Positions 3,212-63,462 of a DNA stretch of 64,000 nt are shown here, piece by piece (the first letter of the stretch is position 1; each line of letters begins with the position of its first letter). The position numbers and the translations under genes are program-made. The stretch lies in IMG/VR virus record IMGVR_UViG_3300021400_000042, one strand, 5' to 3'. The notes under the pieces are model-generated. The model made no database searches and was not told where the DNA came from. It saw only the letters and a program-made list of their open reading frames with translations. Source of the DNA: a virus.

Positions 3212-3323
3212 CATATATCTACTACCCGGCGTTGCAGGGATATAAATGCGACGGTTCAGCCATACCGCTGAGTGGCAGCGGAAATACAAATTAAATCAAG
3301 CATGAACGACAGGAGGAACAGAC

Positions 3324-3995
3324 ATGGAATTTTTGAAAGCACTTTTCGGAGATGAAGCATTGACCTATGACCAGCTTGCGGCAAAGGTGGCAGAGGGCAA
3401 ACTGAATGTTGTCAATATTGCGGACGGGTCCTACGTGAGCCGGAACAAGTTTGATGACACAGTGAACGGCCTGAAATCTCAGGTAACTGACCTTCAGGGG
3501 CAGATAGCGCAGAGAGACACCGATCTTGCCGGCCTGAATGAACAGCTCACAGCTGCACAGGCGGACGCTGGACAGCTTGCAGAAGCTCAGAAACAGCTTT
3601 CCGCGCTGCAGTCCAAGTATGACAAGGACAGTAAGGCGTGGGAGGCAAAGAACGCACAGCAGGCCTATGAATATGCTGTCAGAAGCAAGGCCGGTGAACT
3701 GAAGTTCACGAGCGCGGCAGCAAAGAAAGACTTTATCAGGGAGGCCATTGCACAGGGATTCAAGATGGATGGCGATACGCTGATGGGCTACACAGACTTT
3801 GTGGCGAAGTACCAGGAGAATGATCCGGGTGCATTCGTGAAAGAAACGCCTGCAGCAGATCCGAAACCGGCGGATCCGACTCCTACGATTGTGCTTCCGG
3901 GAAAGTCCAATCCTAACCCTCATAAGATGTCTCTGGCGGAAGCTATGAAGGCAAAAAATGAAAACCCGAACATGGAAATCAATTTTGAAAGCTGA
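3324..3995 (+). CDS. Capsid scaffolding protein
   Basis: 223-aa coiled-coil, Ala/Gln/Lys-rich ORF directly upstream of the capsid gene. The N-terminus MEFLKALFGDEALTYDQL is typical of Firmicute phage scaffold proteins. Confidence 0.7.
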   Translation: MEFLKALFGDEALTYDQLAAKVAEGKLNVVNIADGSYVSRNKFDDTVNGLKSQVTDLQGQIAQRDTDLAGLNEQLTAAQADAGQLAEAQKQLSALQSKYDKDSKAWEAKNAQQAYEYAVRSKAGELKFTSAAAKKDFIREAIAQGFKMDGDTLMGYTDFVAKYQENDPGAFVKETPAADPKPADPTPTIVLPGKSNPNPHKMSLAEAMKAKNENPNMEINFES

Positions 3996-4026: not shown

Positions 4027-5097
4027 ATGCCTGGTATTTTTGATAACAAACTTTTCAATGCAGAGGTATTCCAGAAGTACGTTGATCGTATCCCGAACCT
4101 CAACAGAAACGAGCTGATTCGCTCTCGTGCGGTACGTCCGAGACCGGATCTTGCTGCAGCTATGGCCGATCAGGTGGGCGGCAACTATCTGACCACTCCG
4201 CTGTATGGCCTCATCAATGGCGCTGAAGTCCAGAACTATGACGGTAACACTGACATCGATTCCAATGAGACTGTGACCTTCAGTCACTCCCGTGTCGTTG
4301 TCGGCCGTGCGCAGTCCTGGGTTGAGCGTGATTTCAGTTACGATATCACCGGAGGCGTTGACTTCCTGGAGAACGTGGCACAGCAGATCGCTGAATACTG
4401 GGAGGAAGTCGATCAGGCTACGATCGTTCACATCCTGAACGGTGTGTTTGCTATGACCGATACCGAAGGTAAGAAGTTCGTCGATGGCCATACCCTGGAC
4501 ATCACTGCGAAGGAGAACAGTGAGGGTGTTACCGGTGTAATGGACGGAACTACTCTGAATATCGCTATGCAGCAGGCCTGCGGTGATAACAAGGGTAAGT
4601 TCTCCCTGGCTATCATGCATTCCTTTGTCGCGACGAACCTTGAAAACCTGAGACTTCTGGCCTATCTGAAGTACACGGACGCTTCCGGTATGCAGCGTGA
4701 CCTTGCTATCGGTACGCTGAACGGCAGAACCGTCCTCGTGGACGATAACATGCCGGTCAAGACTACCGGAACCGGTGCGGAAGCAAAGACCACCTATACC
4801 ACCTATGTTCTGGGTGACGGCGCTATCGAGTACACCGATTGCGGCGCAAAGGTCCCGTATGAGACTGACCGTGATCCGGCCAAGAACGGCGGCCAGGATA
4901 CCCTGTATTCCCGTCAGAGAAAGTGCTTTGCTCCGTATGGTATTTCCTTCACGAAGAAGAGCATGACTTCTCTGTCCCCGACTGATGCGGAACTGGAAAA
5001 GGGTCAGAACTGGGAGCTGGTAAACAGCACCGGAGACACCAAACAGTATATCGCTCACAAGGCTATCCCGATTGCACGTATCATTTCCCTGGGCTGA
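4027..5097 (+). CDS. Major capsid protein
   Basis: 356-aa ORF after the scaffold gene with a strong RBS (AAAGGAGA). Canonical position and size. Confidence 0.8.
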   Translation: MPGIFDNKLFNAEVFQKYVDRIPNLNRNELIRSRAVRPRPDLAAAMADQVGGNYLTTPLYGLINGAEVQNYDGNTDIDSNETVTFSHSRVVVGRAQSWVERDFSYDITGGVDFLENVAQQIAEYWEEVDQATIVHILNGVFAMTDTEGKKFVDGHTLDITAKENSEGVTGVMDGTTLNIAMQQACGDNKGKFSLAIMHSFVATNLENLRLLAYLKYTDASGMQRDLAIGTLNGRTVLVDDNMPVKTTGTGAEAKTTYTTYVLGDGAIEYTDCGAKVPYETDRDPAKNGGQDTLYSRQRKCFAPYGISFTKKSMTSLSPTDAELEKGQNWELVNSTGDTKQYIAHKAIPIARIISLG

Positions 5098-5136: not shown

Positions 5137-5520
5137 ATGATGTACCTGACATACGAAGAGTACAAAGGATACGGCGGGGATCTCCCGGAAACGGATTTCA
5201 TTCTGTTTGAGCATAGGGCAAGAAAGCGGATTGACTACTGGACAGACTGCCGTGTTCAGAACATGGCAGCAGTGCCGGAAGCAGTCAAGCTGTGCATGAT
5301 GCAGATTATTAAGCTGGACGGAAAATTCGGTGTGGACGCGCAAACGGATAATCCGGTTGTCGCGTCCTTCAATACTGACGGATATTCGGAAAGCTACGGA
5401 AGTGCATCTGACCAGGCGGCGGCTGCAGAGGCGAGTCTGTATAAAACCGTGAGAAGCCTGTTATACGGCGAAAAGGATGACTACGGTACACCGTTACTTT
5501 ACCGGGGGGTGTACGGATGA
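5137..5520 (+). CDS. Head-tail connector (gp6-like)
   Basis: ATG at 5137 is preferred because the GTG at 5128 overlaps the GGGAGG RBS. Position after the capsid gene. Confidence 0.55.
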   Translation: MMYLTYEEYKGYGGDLPETDFILFEHRARKRIDYWTDCRVQNMAAVPEAVKLCMMQIIKLDGKFGVDAQTDNPVVASFNTDGYSESYGSASDQAAAAEASLYKTVRSLLYGEKDDYGTPLLYRGVYG

Positions 5521-20500: not shown

Positions 20501-23500
20501 CGACCGTATGCTTTTCAAGTCTGATGACTTTGACAGCATTTATACGGATCCGGAGACTCTGGAACAGTTCCCGGCATGGAAGAACGACTTTGAAGCACGT
20601 TTCCCGGAAGATACCTGGGAAGATATCGACAAACTGAAAGAGTGGATCAGCTGGGTAGTATCTACAGACCGCGATCAGGCTACAGGTGATGCTCTTGAAG
20701 CTCCTGTAACCTATGACGGAACTGAGTACACTGCCGATACTGCGGAATATCGTCTGGCGAAGTTCAAAGCAGAACTGGCGGATTATGCAGAGGTTGACAC
20801 TCTGATTTTCTACTATGTATGGACAGAATTCTTCCTGATGGTAGACTCCCGTGCAAAGAACCTGTTCATGGGCTTCCATGGCAGCCCGTGTGAGATCGAG
20901 GGTAGCGCGATTGATCGTAAGATCGTCGCAGAGCCTTACGATATGGATACCGGCCTGGGAACCAACAATGAAGGTACTCTGACATACACCTACAGTCTGG
21001 AAGATCTGGACACGATTGCCGGCGCGGATGTTTTCAACGGACAGCACTCTGTACTGTGGTGCAACCTGAGAGATACGCACAGAGCCGCAATCGTCAACAT
21101 GTATCAGACGCTCCGTTCCTCCGGCGGCCTTAACTACAAAGCAGTTGAGAAGCGCTATGAGGATGCACAGAATATCTGGCCGGAAGCAGTCTGGAATGAA
21201 GACGGAAGGATCAAATATACCGATCCTCTGACCAATCCGGAGACCGGTAAAGAACCGACGGCCTTCTATCTTCCCATGGCACAGGGATCAAAGGAGCAGC
21301 AGCGTAAATGGTGGCTGGGTAACCGTTTCGCGTACATGGACAGCAAATGGAATGCCGGTGATGCACTGGCACAGGTCATTCAGCTTCGTGGCTATGCAAA
21401 AGCGGATATCACGGTTACACCTTACATTGACCTGTATCCGACGGTCAAATATGGATCCTACCTGGTACAGCAGAGAGGTACGGCGGGGACACCTGCTACA
21501 CTGGCCTGCCCGATGGATTCTGTGAATGATACTGAGATCTATATTTACAGTGCGCCGCAGATTGCAAGCGTGGGCGATCTGTCCGGGCTGAAAGTCGGTG
21601 TCGCTGACTTCTCTCAGGCTACAAACATTCAGGAGGTCAAACTGGGTGATGCGGATCCGAGTTACGAAAACAACAACATGAAGCGTCTGAGCTTCGGCAG
21701 CAACGTTCTTCTGAAGAAGATCGATGTCCGGAACTGTGCGATGCTTGGAACCGACGAACAGAAGAGCGTGGACGTTTCCAACTGCGCTATTCTGGAAGAG
21801 GCTTACTTCGACGGCACAGCTATTCAGGGTCTTTCCCTTCCGAATGGCGGCGTGCTGAGAGTGCTGCACGTACCGGCTACAATGTCGAACCTGACGATCA
21901 GGAACCAGAAGAACCTTGCAGAGTTTGTTATCCCGTCCTACAGCAATATCTCGACGTTGTGGCTGGAAAACAACAGCGCCGTGATTGATACTCTGGATAT
22001 TGTGAAGAAGGTTCCGGCAAATGCCCGTATCCATCTGGTAGGGGTAGCGTGGGAAGCGGCTGACGCGGCAGAGATCAGAACCGTCCTGGATCTTCTTGAT
22101 ACAATGAGAGGTCTGGATGACTACGGCAACAACCAGGATCAGGCGTATGTTTCCGGATCCATCCACACAAGCAGCCTGACCGGTGCTGAAGTGGCGGAGT
22201 TTGAAGGCAGATACCCGTATCTGAAGATCCTTGCTGACCACACAACGTCTTACCGCACCTATGCGGATTATGACGGTACAGAGCTGAAGAAGGTTGCTTG
22301 CATCGACGGCGTACCGCAGGAGAGCGCACCGGCCAATCCGTCTAGGGCGCAGACAGCTCAGTACAGCTATTCCTTCGTGGGATGGTCTAAGAGCATGAAC
22401 GCTGAGACAGCGGACTCTGATGCACTGGATAACGTGATTGCTGACAGGACGATCTATGCGGCCTACAGCAAGACCGTGAGGGAATACACCGTAACATGGA
22501 AGAATGCGGATGGAACCACTCTCAGAACGGATACGCTGAAATATGGCGCAACACCGTCCTGGGGACAGGCTATGCCGACCAATTCCAGCGGCCAGACGGC
22601 ACAGGGATGGACACCGACGATCAGCACGGTCACCGGTAACGCAACCTATACCGCGTCCTACATTCCGGTATACAACGTATACTTCTACAACGGTACGACG
22701 CTGCTGAAGGAACAGCAGGTACAGCAGGGTGGAAATGCTACACCGCCGAGTGAAACACCTGTGAGCGCGGACGGTCCGGATTATGAATTCACCGGATGGC
22801 TGCCGGGGTACACGAACATTCAGGGTAACACTTCCTGCTATGCACAGTTCAAAGCTCCGAGTGCTGTGAAGGAAATCACGGATGACTGGGCAACCATTGT
22901 CTCAAAGATTGCGAACGGCACGGCAAATTACCAGGTAGGTAACTACAAGCCTCTGGACCTTGGTACAGAGGGCGTTGTCAATATGCAGATCGTTGGTAAG
23001 AATACCAGTCCTCTTGCATCCGGCAGCGGAACAGCTACTTATGACTGGCTGAGTATGGAACTGCTTGCAACTGACCATAGAATGAACCCGTCCAACAACA
23101 ATAACGCTGAAGGAACCGGGTCTATCGGTGGTTGGGAGAAGTGTGAAATGAGGAAGTACCTCAAAGAGACCATTAAGCCGCTCATACCTGAGACGGTTAG
23201 AAATGCAATCAAAGAGGTTACGAAGTATTCGCGTATCTTTGATACAAGCGGAACTGCAGTCAACGATGTGGCATCGACAGAAGATGTCTGGATCCCGTCC
23301 AAACGTGAAATGTTTGGTGCAATCAGTAATGCAGAGACGATGGGACCGATCTATGACGGAATCTTCACGGATAATGCAAGCCGTGTGAAGAAGAAAGTAG
23401 GCGCGTCCAGCGCCTCGTTCTGGTGGTGCCGGTCCGCTGGTACCAACCATGGCTTCAGTGGTGTGAACAGCAGCGGCGGCAATAGCTATAACGGCGCGAG

Positions 23501-23537
23501 CAACTCCTACCCGCTGGCCCTGGGCTTCTCAATTTAA
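17508..23537 (+). CDS. Giant modular tail fibre / receptor-binding protein (2009 aa), DGR target 1
   Basis: Contains a BppU_N-like N-terminus, a coiled coil, an LRR-like block (KLGDADPSYENNNMKRLSFGSNVLLKKIDVRNC...) and Listeria-Bacteroides-type repeats (YSFVGWS..., YEFTGWL...). The C-terminal domain ends in VR1. Confidence 0.85.
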   Translation: MIIHEFDLDMIPGGNVPSIRVNQYDEDFNLKINLFSRNGNFSVLSGTTALVRGTKPDGNAYSAEASVNGTVVTVTGNQQITAAAGRAIFEISLRRNGRELNTANFVIDIEQAAMDKDTVASTSVVRELVDIMDNSEEIINAGQQYENSQRAMEELTARSEAAAETATTMKTQTEEIATQTAEKWTEVSEQMDRKSAAIATLVSNADQVAAEASEKAGNALNEAAEVSNSLEDIQGKVTALELGQNNYVADGYVEDEEAVFVDKDGNEMFRITGIGGSGGGGGSSDQTVKSQVTMDNMTGWLSKTIAAGAECPVSFVWSSTMEGIPTGNGVVSVTVNNVVKATMDVAQGAVEIDLTPYMTASVNRVEVRVTDIEGQYKRINYSITIMQLSLSSTFDVATPYTGAIPFPYTPIGAVQKTVHFILDGTEIGTQQTSVTGRQMTYTIPAQAHGGHSIRVYFEAEINGETVRSNELYYEFTCLEAMSDEVIITSPYNQATQPQYTSIAIPFTVYDPVSPTAEVKIYANGELLSTQTVDRSEQSYTYRATEAGPLVIEIKSHETTKTFNIEITESDVHAEAETENLMLFLSSQGRSNNEENPWTWVSNVGENDVSAVLSGFNGASDGWQTDESGITCLRVTGGARVQIPYQIFAADARRTGLTFEIEYATRNVSDYNATILSCMNGGRGLEITPQRATLKSEQTELYMQYKEGEHIRVAYTIGKRSENRLVKSYIDGKIARVTQYPDDDDFAQVAPVGISIGSDNCTIDIYCIRVYTNDLTANQVMDNWIADTQDGSLMLERYARNQIFDAYGQVVPGQLPSNLPYMIIECEELPQYKGDKKTVNVSYTDPLYPSHSFTAEKVQANVQGTSSAPYAVKNLDLQFKGGFEMTTTGHSKLYRLRDDSMPTARFVLKADVASSESANNTQLVRLYNDLCPYKTPEMEEDERVRWGIDGIQIVMFWRDTVTGDLHFKGKYNFNFPKRFPEGYGYTEDQESWEWQNNTSDRMLFKSDDFDSIYTDPETLEQFPAWKNDFEARFPEDTWEDIDKLKEWISWVVSTDRDQATGDALEAPVTYDGTEYTADTAEYRLAKFKAELADYAEVDTLIFYYVWTEFFLMVDSRAKNLFMGFHGSPCEIEGSAIDRKIVAEPYDMDTGLGTNNEGTLTYTYSLEDLDTIAGADVFNGQHSVLWCNLRDTHRAAIVNMYQTLRSSGGLNYKAVEKRYEDAQNIWPEAVWNEDGRIKYTDPLTNPETGKEPTAFYLPMAQGSKEQQRKWWLGNRFAYMDSKWNAGDALAQVIQLRGYAKADITVTPYIDLYPTVKYGSYLVQQRGTAGTPATLACPMDSVNDTEIYIYSAPQIASVGDLSGLKVGVADFSQATNIQEVKLGDADPSYENNNMKRLSFGSNVLLKKIDVRNCAMLGTDEQKSVDVSNCAILEEAYFDGTAIQGLSLPNGGVLRVLHVPATMSNLTIRNQKNLAEFVIPSYSNISTLWLENNSAVIDTLDIVKKVPANARIHLVGVAWEAADAAEIRTVLDLLDTMRGLDDYGNNQDQAYVSGSIHTSSLTGAEVAEFEGRYPYLKILADHTTSYRTYADYDGTELKKVACIDGVPQESAPANPSRAQTAQYSYSFVGWSKSMNAETADSDALDNVIADRTIYAAYSKTVREYTVTWKNADGTTLRTDTLKYGATPSWGQAMPTNSSGQTAQGWTPTISTVTGNATYTASYIPVYNVYFYNGTTLLKEQQVQQGGNATPPSETPVSADGPDYEFTGWLPGYTNIQGNTSCYAQFKAPSAVKEITDDWATIVSKIANGTANYQVGNYKPLDLGTEGVVNMQIVGKNTSPLASGSGTATYDWLSMELLATDHRMNPSNNNNAEGTGSIGGWEKCEMRKYLKETIKPLIPETVRNAIKEVTKYSRIFDTSGTAVNDVASTEDVWIPSKREMFGAISNAETMGPIYDGIFTDNASRVKKKVGASSASFWWCRSAGTNHGFSGVNSSGGNSYNGASNSYPLALGFSI
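23404..23531 (+). repeat. DGR variable region VR1
   Basis: 128 nt, collinear with TR 24132-24259. Has 14 mismatches in the body, all at TR adenines in AAC/AAT codons. Confidence 0.95.
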
Positions 23538-24131: not shown

Positions 24132-24259
24132 CGTCCAGCGCCTCGTTCTGGTGGTGCCGGTCCGCTAATAACAACAATAACTTCAATGGTGTGAACAGCA
24201 GCGGCAACAATAACAATAACAACGCGAACAACTCCTACCCGCTGGCCCTGGGATCCTCA
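24132..24259 (+). repeat. DGR template repeat (TR)
   Basis: Non-coding, with a run of AAC/AAT triplets. Matches VR1 over 128 nt and VR2 over 108 nt. The 3' end GGATCCTCA differs from both VRs (GGCTTCTCA), consistent with an IMH* versus IMH distinction. Confidence 0.95.
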
Positions 24260-24485
24260 TCTGTGAGACAAAGTAACCCATGAGGGCGAAATCAGTGCAA
24301 GAGGATGAGAAGGAGAATAGAACCCTCCATGCGGAAGCATGGTAAATAATGCCCTTGATAGGTCTGGGCGGACGCTGCTTGCATGGCGGTGCTTGATGGT
24401 GATGCACCGTTTCATGCCCACTGACCTTACGCGGCTATATGTAACCATCCGGCAGCCGTACAGGGGCAATTTTAAAAAAGGACTG

Positions 24486-25640
24486 ATGACAATGACCAGT
24501 GAAGAACGTCGGGAGGGACGGTATCAGAGAAGGATTGCAAAGCGCATGGCGAAGAGAAATCAGAGCCGTGCTTTTTGTGATGACTTCAACACCGTATTCT
24601 CTTATGAAAATCTTTACCGGTCATATAAGAAATGCCGCAGGAATGTGGCGTGGAAAGCATCCGTCCAGAAATACATCACGCAAGCGCCTTTGATGGTCAA
24701 TCAGACATACGAAAAGCTGCAGGCGGGGAAATTCAAGTCCAGCGGCTTTTATGAGTTTGATATCAATGAGCGTGGGAAGATCCGGCATATTAAGTCGGTG
24801 ACTATAACAGAAAGAGTGGTACAGCGCTGTCTGTGCGATAATGCGCTTGTACCCATGCTGAGTCCTACTTTCATCTATGATAATGGTGCTTCACTGGAAA
24901 ACCGTGGATATCATTTCTCCATACGGCGGATGGTGAGACACCTGCAGGAGCATTACCGGAAACATGGTACAGAAGGTTATGTCCTGCTTTTTGATTTTTC
25001 CAAATTCTTTGATAATGTCTCTCATGAACTGTGCAAGCAAATCATGAGAGAACAGTTCACCGATGAAAGGGTCATAGGTATCACAGATCATTTCATTGAC
25101 ATGTTCGGTGATGTCGGCCTGGGACTTGGAAGTCAGATCAGTCAGACATTCGCTCTGGCCTCTGCAAATCGTCTCGATCATTATGTGAAAGAGGTACTGC
25201 GGATCAGAGGCTATGGACGGTATATGGATGACGGGTATCTGATTCACGAGAGTAAGGAATACCTGCAGCACTGCCTGACGGAAATCCGGCGGGTATGTAG
25301 GGAACTTGGGATCACGATCAATGAGAAGAAAACGCAGATTGTGAAGATATCCCATGGTTTTACCTTCCTGAAAGCTCGTTTTTACCTCACTGAAACCGGA
25401 AAAGTTGTCCGGAAAATATATAAAAAGTCCATCGTCCGGGAGCGGCGCAAGCTGAAAAAGTTTGTGCCTCTTCTGGAAAACGGGGTCATGAGCTACACGG
25501 ACGTTGCGACGGCCTTTCAGTCGTGGTGTGCGTATGCAAAGAACTTCAGCGCATGGCATACGATACAGAATATGTGTCGATTGTATAATCAACTATTCAT
25601 TTATCCCTGGATAATACAGGGAGGGACACAAGGTTGCTGA
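24486..25640 (+). CDS. DGR reverse transcriptase
   Basis: Contains RYMDDGYL (YMDD box) and LGLGSQISQ (the DGR-type [LIV]GxxxSQ motif). The start is set at ATG 24486 or 24492. The longer ORF from 24339 would cover the TR-RT spacer. Confidence 0.9.
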   Translation: MTMTSEERREGRYQRRIAKRMAKRNQSRAFCDDFNTVFSYENLYRSYKKCRRNVAWKASVQKYITQAPLMVNQTYEKLQAGKFKSSGFYEFDINERGKIRHIKSVTITERVVQRCLCDNALVPMLSPTFIYDNGASLENRGYHFSIRRMVRHLQEHYRKHGTEGYVLLFDFSKFFDNVSHELCKQIMREQFTDERVIGITDHFIDMFGDVGLGLGSQISQTFALASANRLDHYVKEVLRIRGYGRYMDDGYLIHESKEYLQHCLTEIRRVCRELGITINEKKTQIVKISHGFTFLKARFYLTETGKVVRKIYKKSIVRERRKLKKFVPLLENGVMSYTDVATAFQSWCAYAKNFSAWHTIQNMCRLYNQLFIYPWIIQGGTQGC

Positions 25641-37901: not shown

Positions 37902-38663
37902 ATGTATCAGAATATCCCTACTAAAGTTTTAACCGGTGAAGTCAGACTTTCCTATTGCCATCTGAATGAGCCGTCTCTGAGAAAAGATGCAGCTCCGGGC
38001 GAAAAGCCGAGATACAGCGTAACTCTGCTGATTCCGAAAACAGATGTGGCAACAAAGGCCGATATCGACTCTGCTATCAAAGCGGCCTATGAGGATGGTG
38101 TGGCGAACAAGTGGAAGGGCCTGCGGCCTGAAATGGCTTCCCCGCTGATCTGGGACGGTGACGGAAGACGTAAAGGCGGCGATGAGTTCGGTCCTGAGTG
38201 CAAAGGCCACTGGGTTATTACAGCGAACACTCCGGACAATACCAGAAAGCCGCAGGTCGTTGACATCTCCAATATCAATGTCGAGCTTGCACCGAAGGAT
38301 GTTTATTCCGGCATGTATGCCCGTGTAACGCTTAATTTCTTCTCCTACAGCAGAGGAAACAAGGGTGTTGGTTGCGGCCTGGGTAACGTCATGAAGACCA
38401 GAGACGGAGAGCCGCTGTCCGGTGGCGCGTCTGCTGCTTCCGACTTTGACGGTATCGGTCAGGCCGTCGCTCCCGGTGTCGGTTTTGGAGCAGGGCCGCA
38501 GGGAACAGCTACACCGAACTACGGCGGAGCGATGCCGGCCACACCCGGACAGATGGGTTACCAGAATACCGGAATGAACATCAATCCGATCACTGGCCAG
38601 CCGATGGGCGGTCCGCAGATGAGCGGGGTACAGATCAATCCGATCACAGGACAGCCCATGTAA
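37902..38663 (+). CDS. DUF2815-family ssDNA-binding-like protein
   Basis: N-terminus VLTGEVRLSYCHLNEP plus a Gly/Pro/Gln-rich tail. Gene context fits. Confidence 0.6.
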   Translation: MYQNIPTKVLTGEVRLSYCHLNEPSLRKDAAPGEKPRYSVTLLIPKTDVATKADIDSAIKAAYEDGVANKWKGLRPEMASPLIWDGDGRRKGGDEFGPECKGHWVITANTPDNTRKPQVVDISNINVELAPKDVYSGMYARVTLNFFSYSRGNKGVGCGLGNVMKTRDGEPLSGGASAASDFDGIGQAVAPGVGFGAGPQGTATPNYGGAMPATPGQMGYQNTGMNINPITGQPMGGPQMSGVQINPITGQPM

Positions 38664-38823
38664 GTTCTTCATAGTTTTTCTCCTTTTCACGGCAGAGCCG
38701 GAACTGCCTTAACAAAACATACACTGGGCAAATAATTGGCGGCATTACGGAACAGCCTAAGAACCGCAAGGGGAACACGCGGATAACACGTCTACCCCGG
38801 ACGAACCAGTTATCCGCACTGTG

Positions 38824-38965
38824 CGGAGCATAGCTCAATGGTAGAGCGGCGTGTATTCAGTAGCGATGGCGTGTCACATTGACGATACGTTGCTGCGGAG
38901 GGATCCGGACCAGTCACCCGGTTTTCAATTCAGTGACGGTGCAGGTTCAAGTCCTGCTGCTCCGC
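38824..38965 (+). ncRNA. tRNA-like element 1 (expanded anticodon region)
   Basis: Acceptor CGGAGCA/TGCTCCG, TA, D-arm GCTC-AATGGTA-GAGC, T-arm GCAGG-TTCAAGT-CCTGC. About 93 nt lie between the D- and T-arms instead of about 23. Confidence 0.6.
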
Positions 38966-39280
38966 TTATAGAAAACAGGGAGGGGGTGAACAGCTTTTAT
39001 GAATTCGGTGACTATCTTCCGTTTCGGATCTTTCGGATATGTGTCAACAGGAAAAGTATTACTGAGACTATGGCTTTTCGTTGGCATGATATCGCCGGAG
39101 ACAGTGAAAAGCTGGCATCCTATTTAGATTAAGCCCATGTAATGAAGAGCTTCTCGTTTAATAACCCAAAGATCCGAACGATGGTGAGTATTACATGGGC
39201 GCATAAAGCTCAACATGTGAATCGATAGTGCGTGTCTCCTGGCAGTGGAAATACAGGAATCACGACACGCACTCTTTTAT

Positions 39281-39376
39281 CGGAACGTGGACAAGAGGTC
39301 AAAGTCGCAGAGCTGAAAGAGAGATTGATCTGACAAAGGAAGCTCAGAGACGCAGGTTCAAATCCTGCCGTTCCGA
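39281..39376 (+). ncRNA. tRNA-like element 2
   Basis: Acceptor CGGAACG/CGTTCCG, D-arm GAC-AAGAGGTCAAA-GTC, T-arm GCAGG-TTCAAAT-CCTGC. About 45 nt in the anticodon-arm region, with no 7-nt anticodon loop. Confidence 0.55.
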
Positions 39377-39534
39377 AGCGGGGTGGAGAACAAATTATCC
39401 GCGCACCCAGTGACAAGTAGCGATAACACTTGTGAAGTAGGGGGACTAAAGTACACGGCCTCTTGAAAAACAGGTGGCGAAAACGTCAGGCCAACCTTGC
39501 GGGATGAGTGGTTTCGGTTACCTGAACCGACCAT

Positions 39535-39613
39535 CGGAACGTAGCTCAAAGGTAGAGCAGGGAATATGGCGGCCGAGGAAGCCCCGATGCAGGTTCAAGT
39601 CCTGTCGTTCTGA
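39535..39613 (+). ncRNA. tRNA-like element 3
   Basis: Acceptor CGGAACG/CGTTCTG, D-arm GCTC-AAAGGTA-GAGC, T-arm GCAGG-TTCAAGT-CCTGT. The 30-nt middle part does not fold into a canonical anticodon arm. Confidence 0.55.
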
Positions 39614-39990
39614 AGTAGTTGGCAGCGCGGAGAGCTGCAGATCTTGCCACACCCAAAATAGACCCGCGCATAAATAAGGGGCTGATCCTGCCGGTACAAA
39701 CAGAAACGGAATGTTCAGCAGGATACCGTGACAACATGAGAGGATGTTGACAGTCTGGAAAAAGAAGCGATGGACAGGCTACACAGTGAGGGAAAACACT
39801 TGAGCGAAAAAACACGCAACCGGGCGTAACACGGCGGTCGAGTCAGGATGTACACGGCGGGGCCGATACGTTGGCCGTGGCATGTCGGAAGTTTATGCAG
39901 GTTAGAGTGAACCGACGAAAAATAGTAACGACGTAACCGCAGAGGGCGAACTGTTCACCCGTCCCTCTCAAAACTAACGGGAGAACTTTT

Positions 39991-40095
39991 CGGAACGTAG
40001 CTTAAAAGGGAAAGCAGCGGCGGAGGATTTTGTCATGTTCCTAAATTATCAGTTGTGCAAGCCGCAGGATGCGCGTTCGAGTCCCGCCGTTCCGA
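39991..40095 (+). ncRNA. tRNA-like element 4
   Basis: Acceptor CGGAACG/CGTTCCG, D-arm GCTT-AAAAGGGA-AAGC, stem GCGGC/GCCGC closing a 39-nt loop, T-arm GCGCG-TTCGAGT-CCCGC (one mismatch). Confidence 0.55.
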
Positions 40096-40406
40096 TTGCC
40101 CGTCCGGTCATGTTTGAACCGGAAATTGAAACCGATTGCACTTTGGCAGCACGTCAGCCGGTCGAAGAGCGGCAGCAGTCAGGAGCGGCTATACGGCCTG
40201 CGTTTCGCTGTGAACGAAATCACAGAGCGCGAGGTTATGTTCGGTTTGTAGCGCGTAAAGGGTCCTGAAGACCGGACGATATACGGGGAAACCATATACA
40301 GCGACCGGAGCAGGTGAGAACCGACGATCTGGGGTTGTTAAACGGTGCATCGGTATGGGAGTACCCGTTTTTCTCTGAGATTTACAAGTGATGAAGGAGG
40401 CAACCT

Positions 40407-42413
40407 ATGATGCATCACTTATCAATCGACCTGGAAACGTACTCTGAAGCGACTATCACAAAGACAGGAGCGCAGCGGTACATTCTGGATCCGAGTTTTG
40501 AAATATTATTGTTCGCCTATTCCGTGGACGGGCAGCCGGTCCAGATCATCGATCTGGCAAACGGTGAGACGGTCCCGGAATGGTTGAAAACAGCATTGGT
40601 GAATCCGGCCTATATCAAACACGCCTATAATGCACCGTTTGAATTCGGCTGCCTGTCAAAGTATTACGGACAGCTGTATCCGGCACAGTGGCGCTGCACG
40701 ATGTTCCACGGTCTGTATTGTGGCTACACAGCGGGACTGGAAGCAACGGGTAAGGCTTTAGGGCTGCCGGAAGACAAACAGAAATTGAAAACCGGTCGAG
40801 ACCTGATCCGGTACTTTTGTGTACCATGCCGGCCGACAAAGAGTAACGGACAGCGGACCAGAAACTATCCGCATCATGATCCGGATAAATGGCAGCTCTT
40901 CAAAGAATATTGCTGTCAGGACGTGGTTACAGAGATGGAGATTGAAAGACGGCTTTCTTCTTTCCCGGTTCCCGACTTTGTACAGAAGCAGTGGGAAACG
41001 GATCTGAGGATAAACTTCAGAGGCGTGGCCGTGGATATGCCGTTTGTGGAAGGCGCTCTCATCATGGGTAACCAGGTGAAGACGGAAATGATCGAAGAGG
41101 CAGAACAGATAACGAACCTTGACAATCCGAACAGTATTTCACAACTGAAAGACTGGCTGAATAAAGAGATTGGAACCGGTGAAGAGGAACCGGAAATTCA
41201 GAGCTTGTCAAAGGACATCGTGAAGAAGCTCCTGAACCGTGAAGACAACAGTCCGGATGTACAGAGGATGCTGCAGATCCGTCAGGAGCTTGGAAAGACA
41301 TCCACGAAGAAGTATGACGCAATAAAGATATGTGTTTGTCCTGATAAGCGGGTCAGAGGACTGCTGCAGTTCTATGGAGCCAACAGAACCGGCAGATGGG
41401 CCGGCCGGCTGGTACAGGTCCAGAACCTTCCGAGAACGTACACAGATCCGATAGAGCTTGCCCGTGAGCTTGTCACAGACAGGAAGACAACGGCGGTCAG
41501 ATGCCTTTACGGATCTGTCTCTGACACGCTCTCACAGCTCATCAGGACGGCTTTCATTGCCAGTCCTGGGAATGTTCTGATCGATGCCGATTTCAGCGCT
41601 ATTGAGGCGCGTGTGATCTCGTGGCTGGCCGGTGAACAGTGGAGACTGGAAGTATTCCGGACGCACGGGAAGATCTACGAGGCTTCCGCTTCACAGATGT
41701 TCGGCGTACCGATAGAGCTGATTAAGAAGGGCAATCCTGAATATGCTCTGAGGGCAAAAGGGAAGGTCGCTGAATTGGCTTTAGGATATCAGGGAAGTTC
41801 CGGGGCGCTCATCAATATGGGAGCTTTGGAGATGGGGCTACACGAAGAGGAACTGCCGGACATCGTACAGAGATGGAGGACCGCGAACAGGCACATTCAA
41901 AGTCTCTGGTATGAAATGGATGAAGGGGCGCGGCAGGTTATCGGTTTTGGCGGGGCCGTGAATGTACACGGGTTATGGCTGGCAAGGGAGTATGACTATA
42001 ACCAGGGTGTTTACTGCTTCACGATCACGTTACCTTCCGGCCGGAAGCTCTTTTACATCAATCCGAAGATCGGAACGAACCGGTTTGGCGGTGAGTCTAT
42101 CACGTACTGGGGTATGGACCAGACATCGAAGAAGTGGAAAGAGATAGAGACCTACGGCGGGAAACTGACAGAGAACGTTGTGCAGGCTATTGCTCGTGAT
42201 TGTCTGGCAGAGGCGATTGAACGCCTGGAAGCGGCAGGGTTTCCCATTGTCTTCCATGTGCATGATGAAGTGGTCATTGATATAAAGCCCTATGCAGACA
42301 ACAAGGCGATGCTGCAGCAGGTAGTCGATATCATGAAGCAGCCGCCGGCATGGGCGGCAGATATGCCGCTGAATGCGGCAGGATGGGTAGGAGATTTCTT
42401 CACGAAGGATTAA
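40407..42413 (+). CDS. Family A DNA polymerase with 3'-5' exonuclease domain
   Basis: ExoI motif LSIDLETYS. 668 aa. Context with DUF2800 and DUF2815. Confidence 0.8.
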   Translation: MMHHLSIDLETYSEATITKTGAQRYILDPSFEILLFAYSVDGQPVQIIDLANGETVPEWLKTALVNPAYIKHAYNAPFEFGCLSKYYGQLYPAQWRCTMFHGLYCGYTAGLEATGKALGLPEDKQKLKTGRDLIRYFCVPCRPTKSNGQRTRNYPHHDPDKWQLFKEYCCQDVVTEMEIERRLSSFPVPDFVQKQWETDLRINFRGVAVDMPFVEGALIMGNQVKTEMIEEAEQITNLDNPNSISQLKDWLNKEIGTGEEEPEIQSLSKDIVKKLLNREDNSPDVQRMLQIRQELGKTSTKKYDAIKICVCPDKRVRGLLQFYGANRTGRWAGRLVQVQNLPRTYTDPIELARELVTDRKTTAVRCLYGSVSDTLSQLIRTAFIASPGNVLIDADFSAIEARVISWLAGEQWRLEVFRTHGKIYEASASQMFGVPIELIKKGNPEYALRAKGKVAELALGYQGSSGALINMGALEMGLHEEELPDIVQRWRTANRHIQSLWYEMDEGARQVIGFGGAVNVHGLWLAREYDYNQGVYCFTITLPSGRKLFYINPKIGTNRFGGESITYWGMDQTSKKWKEIETYGGKLTENVVQAIARDCLAEAIERLEAAGFPIVFHVHDEVVIDIKPYADNKAMLQQVVDIMKQPPAWAADMPLNAAGWVGDFFTKD

Positions 42414-63235: not shown

Positions 63236-63318
63236 GGGTGAGTGTGCCGAGAGGCGAAGGCAGCGGACTGTAAATCCGTGACAGAGAAACACCGGTGGTT
63301 CGATTCCACCTTCACCCA
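63236..63318 (+). tRNA. tRNA-Tyr (GTA), type II with a long variable arm
   Basis: Acceptor GGGTGAG/TTCACCC, anticodon arm GCGGA-CTGTAAA-TCCGT, T-arm GGTGG-TTCGATT-CCACC. Collinear with E. coli tRNA-Tyr. Confidence 0.8.
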
Positions 63319-63462
63319 CGATGCCCTCCGAGGTCTGCGGACCGGCGGTGAAAGCTCATTCTTTTTGGAGATTATGAGAAAGGCTACACAGTAAAAAGAG
63401 TTTTACTTTTCCCGTCGTTGTGGTAGAATCTTTTTATCACAATATGAGGGAGGCGTTTATAG

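Follow-up and report, generated by a model that had tools for sequence, protein, structure and literature searches.

The viral record IMGVR_UViG_3300021400_000042 of IMG/VR, of which a stretch of 64 kb was analyzed as a whole (the window), carries four tRNA-like elements, e1 to e4, in which the anticodon arm is swapped for an unrelated structured segment, so that none of them can read a codon. They lie on the plus strand in the gap that, by direct reading, extends from the stop codon of an SSB-like gene (38663) to the start codon of polA (40407). The elements are a real, selected, noncoding feature, and the core observation of a preliminary description of this DNA is thus confirmed. On balance, we lean toward reading the gap as a polycistronic phage noncoding RNA (ncRNA) island, the units of which would be matured by RNase P, RNase Z, and the CCA-adding enzyme into stable, nondecoding tRNA mimics. 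For comparison, we fetched related phage and prophage loci, 297 in all, which are designated by L-numbers (L001, L218, etc.).

All four elements match the Rfam tRNA model (RF00005) end to end and above its gathering score of 29 bits. In the alignments the acceptor, D, and T arms are aligned, and 19 to 88 nt are skipped at the anticodon arm. A covariance model built here, R1, matches the same four, at the positions where the preliminary description had placed them. Each element has a 7-bp acceptor stem, a 5-bp T stem with a TTCRA loop, a D arm with the D-loop GG, and both U8 and A14. The distance from the D arm to the T arm, determined with a scaffold scanner and by direct reading, is 93 nt in e1, 45 nt in e2, 30 nt in e3, and 55 nt in e4, which reproduces the earlier values. 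The sharing of parts noted earlier is also borne out, with the acceptor CGGAACG/CGTTC(C/T)G common to e2 to e4 and the T arm GCAGG-TTCAAR-CCTG common to e1 to e3. On direct reading, e2 to e4 have C1:G72 and A73, a tRNA-Pro-like feature. The acceptor of e1 is CGGAGCA/TGCTCCG, its D and T arms are normal, and G-1 (38823) stands opposite C73 (38965); an encoded G-1 opposite C73 is a hallmark of bacterial tRNA-His identity.

At the place of the anticodon arm, e1 has a 93-nt segment with two long hairpins. The arm of e2 (acceptor CGGAACG/CGTTCCG plus A73, D stem of 3 bp) is extended, with GAGCU/AGCUC closing a 27-nt loop. In e3, a 3- to 4-bp stem, GGG(G)/CCCC, closes the 19-nt loop AAUAUGRCGGCCGAGGAAR, and in e4 a perfect 5-bp stem, GCGGC/GCCGC, closes a 39-nt loop that starts with GGAGGAUUUUGUCAUG, which is Shine-Dalgarno-like and includes an AUG. 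A 7-nt anticodon loop is absent from e1 to e4, with the folds giving loops of 19 to 39 nt or long hairpins; Rfam alignments, ARAGORN, and the folds agree that no 5-bp anticodon stem closes such a loop, just as the preliminary description had it. By folding energy, e2 (z score of -2.8) and e1 (z score of -2.0) are more stable than their shuffled sequences.

The GGAGGA-N7-AUG in the e4 insert (40021 to 40036) looks like a strong ribosome-binding site and is kept in five contigs, with no reading frame conserved downstream. A Shine-Dalgarno-like purine motif is found in all four inserts. This is weakly unexpected (joint probability of about 0.02 for a motif chosen post hoc), and we record it as an oddity.

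The elements belong to a larger family. R1 describes a C1:G72 acceptor (CGGA../..UCCG), a D arm with GG, a T arm GYRGG-TTCRA-, and a central segment that is noncanonical. Over the window it finds e1 to e4 with 50.8 to 69.1 bits, and the only further match is a tRNA-Tyr at 63236, with 26 bits. In the related loci, 75 elements were found in 36 loci, and 38 of the 51 strongest (≥45 bits) have lengths outside 70 to 78 nt. A strict, hand-written scaffold scanner gave 201 matches in the fetched loci versus 1 in shuffled copies, and more than 119 loci were obtained when viral contigs were scanned for the T arm together with the 3' strand of the acceptor. Rfam searches of 12 related islands at gathering thresholds gave nothing except "tRNA." In an alignment of 41 sequences, 98.8% of the cells in the three scaffold helices are paired (96 to 100% by helix), and 11 of 16 pairs change on both sides. 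None of 500 shuffles reached the observed score, and slid controls were paired at 28 to 46%. T8, A14, and the T-loop positions are invariant across the alignment. CCA is encoded by none of 28 expanded elements and by none of e1 to e4. An 8-bp acceptor with a -1:73 pair (Sec- or His-like) was considered as a family feature and dropped: the -1 base is T in 16 of the 28 elements but A opposite A73 in 9.

The same scaffold (CGGAACG/CGTTCCG and A73) also serves a canonical 73-nt tRNA-Ile(UAU), in about 30 contigs, as well as tRNA-Pro(UGG/GGG) and attP-like 3' halves of tRNA-Pro. Dozens of its variants, from 61 to 152 nt, are nondecoding. These include an 89-nt family in at least 22 contigs, with an 11-position arm and a 12-nt loop; an 87-nt family in 18 contigs; forms of 85, 90, 100, 112, 114, and 117 nt in various contigs; a 150/152-nt family with a covarying internal hairpin; and 70- to 72-nt forms, the arm of which is a GNRA-capped mini-hairpin. 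e1 to e4 derive from a tRNA scaffold that Clostridia phages use also for genuine tRNA-Ile(UAU) and tRNA-Pro.

The comparison of loci also points to selection on some of the inserts. e4 is identical at 104 of 105 positions in L001 and L003, versus flanks that are about 80% identical. It is further present on the unrelated backbones of L214 and L217, and a 10-nt deletion in the loop of the latter spares GGAGGAUUUUGUCAUGUUCCUA and UUGUGCAA. The e3 insert recurs in L218 (4877 to 4954), and the positional ortholog of e3 in L001 and L003 has the same scaffold and flanks around an unrelated 41-nt insert. Copies of the 89-nt variant differ by wobble-compatible stem changes only. In a second group of gut phages, flanks that are 92 to 98% identical enclose either a canonical tRNA-Ile(UAU) (L096, minus strand, 909 to 981) or the 89-nt mimic (L145, 8546 to 8634), and downstream of the slot both have an 87-nt mimic and then a tRNA-Tyr. 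In L001, L003, L004, L137, L155, L214, L217, and L218, each module may occur or be missing independently of the others, and the order of the modules differs. The inserts appear to be exchangeable on a conserved scaffold, and modules have been reassorted between unrelated phage backbones. Locus comparison and an exact-pattern scan of IMG/VR gave no homologs of the e1 insert or of the e2 insert, which is a singleton; the exact-pattern scan for the spacer motif GAGAGCTGCAGATCTT gave only known relatives or nothing. A metagenome scan with the e4 insert added only two new informative contigs.

Other units were seen in the related arrays. tRNA-Leu-like units, with the class II D loop GGCGGAAUAGGUARACGC, the T arm UGCAAAU, and long inserts replacing the anticodon arm, are located in L001 (about 4553 to 4650), L003 (about 3680 to 3790 and 5340 to 5450), L217 (10704 to 10815), and L214 (about 430 to 545), and a conserved 220-nt "module X" often lies 3' of them. 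A hairpin with a GGAAAGAC core and a covarying stem stands a few nucleotides 5' of many tRNA-like units in L003, L004, L137, L155, and L217 (e.g., L217 10540 to 10565); it may be a processing or leader signal. The window has a similar CCUGGCAGUGGAAAUACAGG at 39241 to 39260, upstream of e2.

Features of the gap between the SSB-like gene and polA
Feature	Position	Strand	Rfam tRNA (bits)	R1 (bits)	Description
Hairpin GGCAG-AGCCGGAA-CTGCC	38691-38708	+			Just after the SSB stop codon, upstream of the leader
Promoter candidate TTAACA-16-AATAAT	38709-38736	+			Sigma-70-like; only promoter-like plus-strand site between SSB and polA
Structured leader	38738-38817	+			GGCGG..CCGC, GGGG, nested hairpin; near-invariant across four relatives
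e1	38824-38965	+	41.0	50.8	142 nt; unmodelled anticodon-arm block of 88 nt
Spacer 1	38966-39280	+			Branched domain at about 38983-39123, 12-bp hairpin at 39134-39201, hairpin at 39229-39272
e2	39281-39376	+	46.7	56.6	96 nt; unmodelled anticodon-arm block of 24 nt
Spacer 2	39377-39534	+			Conserved module between tRNA-like units in L218 (85%) and L137 (95%)
e3	39535-39613	+	45.3	69.1	79 nt; unmodelled anticodon-arm block of 19 nt
Spacer 3	39614-39990	+			Structured RNA of about 310-390 nt; kept in L001, L003, and L214; about 80% identity
Pseudoknot motif M1	39941-39986	+			46-nt H-type pseudoknot at the 3' end of spacer 3
e4	39991-40095	+	42.5	63.1	105 nt; unmodelled anticodon-arm block of 39 nt
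Spacer 4	40096-40354	+			5' part similar to L137 (77%); 3' part (40268 onward) kept in L001 (91%) and L003 (92%)
Terminator-like hairpin AUGGG-AGUA-CCCGU plus U5	40355-40373	+			34 nt upstream of the polA start codon; weak, 5 pairs

Upstream of e1 lies a conserved block of hairpin, promoter candidate, and leader (see the table). The stem of the hairpin covaries, to GGCGG/CCGCC in L004 and GGTGG/CCACC in L200, L202, and L218, with the loop kept. The candidate -10 element is kept as CATAAT, TATAAT, or AATAAT in 11 homologous leaders, and the -35 element is variable. In the leader, a nested hairpin, GCGGATAAC (38779 to 38787) with GTTATCCGC (38809 to 38817), encloses CGTCT..GGACG; the apical CCCC could pair with the upstream GGGG as a pseudoknot. 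Nine compensatory pairs were counted among eight sequences of the leader. The first 155 nt after the SSB stop codon are 89 to 97% identical in L003 and L004, versus 71 to 75% for the SSB gene. The leader is present also in L200 to L203, L155, L196, and L218, and the whole block is common to at least 11 phage or prophage loci. In L200 to L203 the leader directly precedes protein genes (SSB and polA in L200). No Rfam model matched it. Positions 38691 to 38817 may form a processive-antitermination or other promoter-proximal regulatory RNA. As the -35 element is variable, the conserved block may be a promoter, an RNA element that is transcribed from farther upstream, or a combination of the two. 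At the other end of the gap, the hairpin plus T5 reported earlier, a putative terminator, is present, though weak, and is conserved in L001 and L003.

The preliminary description had called the spacers GC-rich and full of stems. The former does not hold, with a GC content of 0.50 to 0.545 for the region versus about 0.50 for the window; the latter holds for spacer 1 by energy and for spacer 3 by covariation. The minimum free energy of spacer 1 is -98.2 kcal/mol, versus -78.2 ± 5.1 kcal/mol for shuffled sequences (z score of -3.9, or -3.6 in another run), and none of 100 shuffles was as stable. No homologs of spacer 1 were found among the compared loci, which precludes a covariation test. The copies of spacer 2 are too similar for one (1 compensatory pair). 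The consensus fold of spacer 3 has ten pairs with compensatory changes, substitutions that leave its helices intact can be seen in the alignment, and a two-hairpin subdomain of the window is missing from L001. The z score of spacer 4 is -1.5, which is not significant.

In M1, the stem AGAGGG (39941 to 39946)/CCCTCT (39963 to 39968) is combined with pairing of the loop GTTCACCCGT (39953 to 39962) to ACGGGAGAAC (39977 to 39986). Across the five phages that have M1, 100% of the cells are paired, 5 pairs change on both sides, and none of 500 shuffles reaches the covariation score. The covariation analysis suggested by the preliminary description thus gave covarying helices in the scaffold, the leader, spacer 3, and M1. 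In the window and in L001, only UUUU separates M1 from a tRNA-like unit of the CGGAACG type; 3' of M1 lies another structured element, which bears a T arm, in L086 and L155, and a protein gene in L161. The resemblance of M1 to a preQ1-I riboswitch (AGAGG..CCCUCU..AAAAC-UAA) was followed up and dropped, as Rfam gave no match.

We propose the following model. The island would be read on the plus strand as part of the polA operon, from the conserved early leader. RNase P would cut the 5' end of each tRNA-like unit, RNase Z would cut after the discriminator base, and the CCA-adding enzyme would complete the 3' ends. The predicted products are a leader RNA, four stable tRNA-shaped RNAs of 79 to 142 nt, RNAs derived from the spacers, and a polA mRNA, the 5' end of which would be a product of processing. 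In this model the tRNA shape would be a processing signal and a protective scaffold, and the replaced arm would be a variable, exchangeable payload. The single promoter-like site in a covarying leader, with all parts on one strand, argues for one transcription unit, and processing by the three enzymes is predicted because the acceptor/T stack and the elbow that they recognize are intact here and because the bacterial YrlA RNA (see below) provides a precedent. A polycistronic ncRNA cut at tRNA-like sites was one of three explanations offered in the preliminary description, and it is the best supported of them: the common strand, the one promoter-like site, and the preserved acceptor/T stack and D/T elbow speak for it, and the cutting is the part that we infer. 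That the mimics titrate a host factor recognizing the tRNA body is a speculative guess.

Several points weigh against the model. Transcription, use of the promoter candidate, cleavage by RNase P and RNase Z, and the addition of CCA all belong to the predicted part of the model. The conserved hairpin upstream of the promoter candidate suggests read-through from the SSB gene and makes the start of the transcript uncertain, and conservation of the -35 element is poor. By folding energy, e3, e4, and spacers 2 to 4 do not stand out from their shuffled sequences, a point that counts against all of these except spacer 3. The inserts of e1 and e2 and spacer 1 have no homologs, and it is therefore folding energy on which their structures are based. 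Lastly, gene conversion, and not function, could account for the near-identical acceptor of the paralogs.

Known cases of tRNA mimicry are bacterial Y RNAs, tmRNA, the 3' ends of plant viruses, and RNAs of a herpesvirus, and phage tRNAs are now recognized as weapons against tRNA-targeting immunity. The elements appear to be a new form of this theme, widespread in Clostridia phages. In the literature searched, the coverage of which is incomplete, no description was found of phage arrays of anticodon-less tRNA-like RNAs with payloads at the anticodon position. The island resembles phage tRNA arrays in that tRNA-shaped genes are clustered on one strand in a phage, and relatives use the same scaffold for real tRNA-Ile(UAU), tRNA-Pro, and tRNA-Tyr, sometimes in the same array (L003 5102 to 5174; L145 and L096). 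In contrast to such arrays, the elements of the window have no anticodon stem-loop, with segments of 30 to 93 nt in its stead and long structured spacers between the units.

Nondecoding tRNA-shaped units are known to recruit RNase P and RNase Z to cut a longer transcript and to stabilize RNA, as in the TMERs of gammaherpesvirus 68, the MALAT1 mascRNA, mitochondrial tRNA punctuation, engineered tRNA scaffolds, and tRNA-gRNA arrays. In the engineered scaffolds the payload replaces the anticodon stem, which is exactly the topology of e1 to e4. All of these examples are, however, eukaryotic, organellar, or artificial. The bacterial YrlA RNA has a tRNA-like domain on which tRNA enzymes act: they modify it, RNase P cleaves it, and CCA is added to it (PMC4201824). 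YrlA (RF02553), reported also in phages, is like e1 to e4 a nondecoding RNA mimicking the tRNA elbow and acceptor, but it is circularly permuted and ends in a Ro60-binding stem on the anticodon side, whereas the elements here end at the acceptor stem. The YrlA model gave 16.4 and 17.5 bits in the window (E values of 2 to 5), versus a threshold of 69 bits, and no TROVE/Ro60 domain was found in the 30 open reading frames (ORFs) scanned, all of them outside the structural module. By analogy, the elements would most resemble, in function, tRNA-like processing or stability modules such as YrlA, the TMERs, mascRNA, and engineered tRNA scaffolds. Inside the tRNA-like array of L003 (5231 to 5323), a subthreshold YrlA match (32.9 bits, E value of 0.003) has a long closing stem, a T-arm mimic, and an internal hairpin.

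RNAC and RNAD of phage T4 lie in the T4 tRNA gene cluster. They are phage-encoded stable ncRNAs, the function of which is still unknown (PMC9697503). Likened by description only, they offer the nearest parallel in phages for stable RNAs without a known role, with the difference that they are two species in one phage. To our knowledge, a shared scaffold with exchangeable arms has not been reported in T4. With tmRNA, the elements have in common a tRNA-like acceptor/T domain and a non-tRNA insert, which in e4 has a Shine-Dalgarno-like motif and an AUG; here, by contrast, the D arm is full, the inserts are far shorter, and no tag reading frame is conserved. ARAGORN found no tmRNA, and tRNA was the sole Rfam match of the tmRNA clan.

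A phage RNA family with a tRNA body, no anticodon, and exchangeable inserts would add a new layer to the biology of tRNA mimics. Such RNAs could interact with RNase P and RNase Z, with the CCA-adding enzyme, with modification enzymes, and perhaps also with synthetases or EF-Tu, but they cannot decode, and they would be a natural counterpart of the engineered tRNA scaffold for recombinant RNA expression. In routine annotation the elements are missed, or they are mistaken for tRNAs, tRNAs with introns, or pseudogenes; this may inflate the number of tRNAs counted in gut phages and let real ncRNA genes go unnoticed. The analysis provides short, testable RNAs (79 to 142 nt), a covariance model for mining, and an identified prophage host lineage (L218, a metagenome-assembled genome [MAG] labeled Eubacterium sp.).

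Among the other readings, the one that survives best was also among the three explanations first offered. The tRNA mimics would be antidefense decoys that bind, without being destroyed, host enzymes for the tRNA body or CCA end (anticodon nucleases, acceptor-end toxins), or that soak up tRNA-handling proteins. As the main selected function we consider this possible but rather unlikely; it is compatible with the processing model, and both can coexist. The accessory island at the head of the early operon, found in only a few close relatives, fits such a role, as do hypervariable payloads on a conserved scaffold, the shuffling of modules between unrelated phages, and the array slot that takes either the decoding tRNA-Ile(UAU) or an anticodon-less mimic. 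Arrays elsewhere, moreover, mix mimics with canonical tRNAs, and that of L003 has the weak YrlA-like match. However, no defense system, target, or binding partner was identified, no published precedent was found in the literature searched, and stoichiometric decoys against catalytic toxins would require very high expression. Anticodon nucleases also generally read the anticodon loop, which is missing here.

A wider proposal, which we put forward tentatively and judge unlikely, is that the elements represent an unrecognized class of RNA cassettes in Clostridia phages, anticodon-less scaffolds with exchangeable payloads that are swapped by recombination at the scaffold halves and act as counterdefense or host-takeover factors. 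Such cassettes could be, for example, uncleavable decoys for tRNA-directed immune nucleases or toxins, or carriers that bring payload RNAs to the machinery that binds tRNA. The ribosome could be the target of the e4 payload, in which the Shine-Dalgarno-like GGAGGA-N7-AUG is conserved.

It is quite improbable that the elements have no function at the RNA level and represent tRNA pseudogenes in decay or scars left by recombination in what was once a phage tRNA array. The scaffold is shared with real phage tRNAs, shared scaffold halves would favor recombination, and the e1 and e2 inserts are singletons, all of which would suit decay. But the three scaffold helices are still paired almost throughout, with compensatory changes, and the nucleotides of tertiary interactions are invariant. 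Moreover, the e4 insert is far more constrained than its flanks and persists across backbones, and several expanded families recur in tens of contigs.

The remaining one of the original explanations, a large ornate RNA of the GOLLD or ROOL kind with embedded tRNA-like domains, the whole 1.7 kb acting as a single particle, has become very improbable. GOLLD and ROOL are large ncRNAs of Firmicute prophages, often near tRNAs (PMC5737381), and the gap resembles them in that it is long, noncoding, and carried by a Clostridia phage and has tRNA-like parts as well as several helices that covary. However, GOLLD (RF01998) and ROOL (RF03087) gave no match at gathering score over the window, none at an E value of ≤10 over 38600 to 40450, and none in 12 related islands. 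Of the GOLLD, ROOL, tRNA, and tmRNA models proposed for this search in the preliminary description, the tRNA model alone matched, and at permissive thresholds GOLLD, ROOL, tmRNA, group I introns, ribozymes, and riboswitches gave nothing beyond tRNA and chance-level matches. Modules occur independently and in other orders in other phages, the sets between the same leader and polA differ among L001, L003, L004, and L218, and no long-range covarying helices tie the modules together. Instead of one conserved fold, the region is a mosaic of separately inherited modules.

Genuine tRNAs with short anticodon-loop introns, removed by a phage or host activity, are likewise very hard to credit, and the statement of the preliminary description that the elements are neither ordinary tRNAs nor simple intron-containing ones stands. 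By default, ARAGORN called only e2, as a 98-nt tRNA-Leu(AAG) with an A at position 33. With introns allowed it returned a model for each of the four (SeC-UCA, Ser-GGA, Pro-AGG, and Ala-UGC), and the e3 model, with anticodon AGG, fits the Pro-like acceptor and works for the L218 ortholog too. These models are, however, obtained by ad hoc excisions and do not amount to consistent canonical tRNAs. The "introns" sit at four different positions (39/40, 34/35, 33/34, and 32/33), and their excision leaves mismatched stems and, in e4, G33. The identities conflict, with an "Ala" model that has no G3:U70 and a "Ser" model that has no long variable arm, and the recoding of stop codons implied by SeC-UCA is not evident, given that long ORFs stay intact under table 11. 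The introns known from bacterial tRNAs are group I ribozymes; in the ARAGORN models the inserts have only 10 to 54 nt, segments of 30 to 93 nt are too short for a group I core, and the Intron_gpI model gave no match at an E value of ≤10 over 38600 to 40450. Orthologous slots, finally, hold unrelated inserts with no common anticodon stem, and some relatives carry a GNRA mini-hairpin, in which no anticodon is possible.

The earlier statement that no credible ORF lies between the SSB-like gene and the polymerase gene agrees with our findings, as the longest has 93 amino acids (aa) (38851 to 39132; others are 42 aa, 38999 to 39127, and 77 aa, 40035 to 40268) and none is conserved as a protein. That a small protein gene, such as one of these three, is the real content of part of the region deserves next to no credence: the ORFs exist, and the ATG inside e4 has a strong Shine-Dalgarno-like GGAGGA 7 nt upstream, but tblastn of the gap ORFs against the 297 loci returned only stretches coinciding with nucleotide-conserved RNA modules (one match in two frames), in L001 the e4 ORF loses its similarity as soon as the tRNA-like unit ends, in L217 the 10-nt deletion shifts its frame, no blastn match was found in the phage collection, and the ORFs in spacer 1, outside the reach of the conservation test, have no homologs.

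The gap is flanked, by Pfam, by an Enc34-type ssDNA-binding protein on one side and a family A DNA polymerase on the other. The surrounding replication module includes a DUF2800 nuclease, ThyX, Dcm, NrdD/G, a VapE primase-helicase, and an SNF2 helicase. The phage is temperate and encodes a serine recombinase, a CI-like repressor, and a terminase. A Pfam scan of 30 phage ORFs gave no tRNA-handling enzyme (ligase, CCA enzyme, synthetase, or Ro60). In about 75 of the 80 viral contigs that have a gene for a related polymerase, the SSB gene is directly adjacent to polA, and an insert of 1.2 to 2.5 kb between the two was found among these 80 only in L001, L003, and L004. Since the genes abut in most relatives, the array is an accessory insertion, placed between the conserved early leader and polA at the head of the early operon; L001, L003, L004, and L218 have differing module sets at this place. 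The polymerases of these loci are 98%, 83%, 84%, and 81% identical, respectively, to that of the window. Among bacterial genome loci, 1 of 80 has the same layout, namely, L218, a prophage in a goat-jejunum "Eubacterium sp." MAG, and the hosts of the polymerase clade are gut Clostridia. When the region and a related array were used as blastn queries, the 50,697 phage records of GenBank that were searched yielded no informative match, and no cultured phage carrying this island was found among these records.

Some further RNA features were found elsewhere in the window. The tRNA-Tyr matched by R1 is an ordinary class II tRNA-Tyr(GTA) (63236 to 63319), located just after the large terminase gene, and is the sole canonical tRNA in the window. 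Rfam GP20-a RNA was found within the structural-gene module (3221 to 3319, 57.9 bits). A 128-nt repeat has two copies, 88% identical, one (23404 to 23531) at the 3' end of a tail-fiber-like ORF of 2009 aa and the second (24132 to 24259) upstream of a reverse transcriptase gene (24339 to 25640). Between the second copy and this gene, overlapping its start, is an Rfam RT-2 RNA (24259 to 24488, 146 bits). The repeats, the RT-2 RNA, and the reverse transcriptase gene probably form a diversity-generating retroelement.

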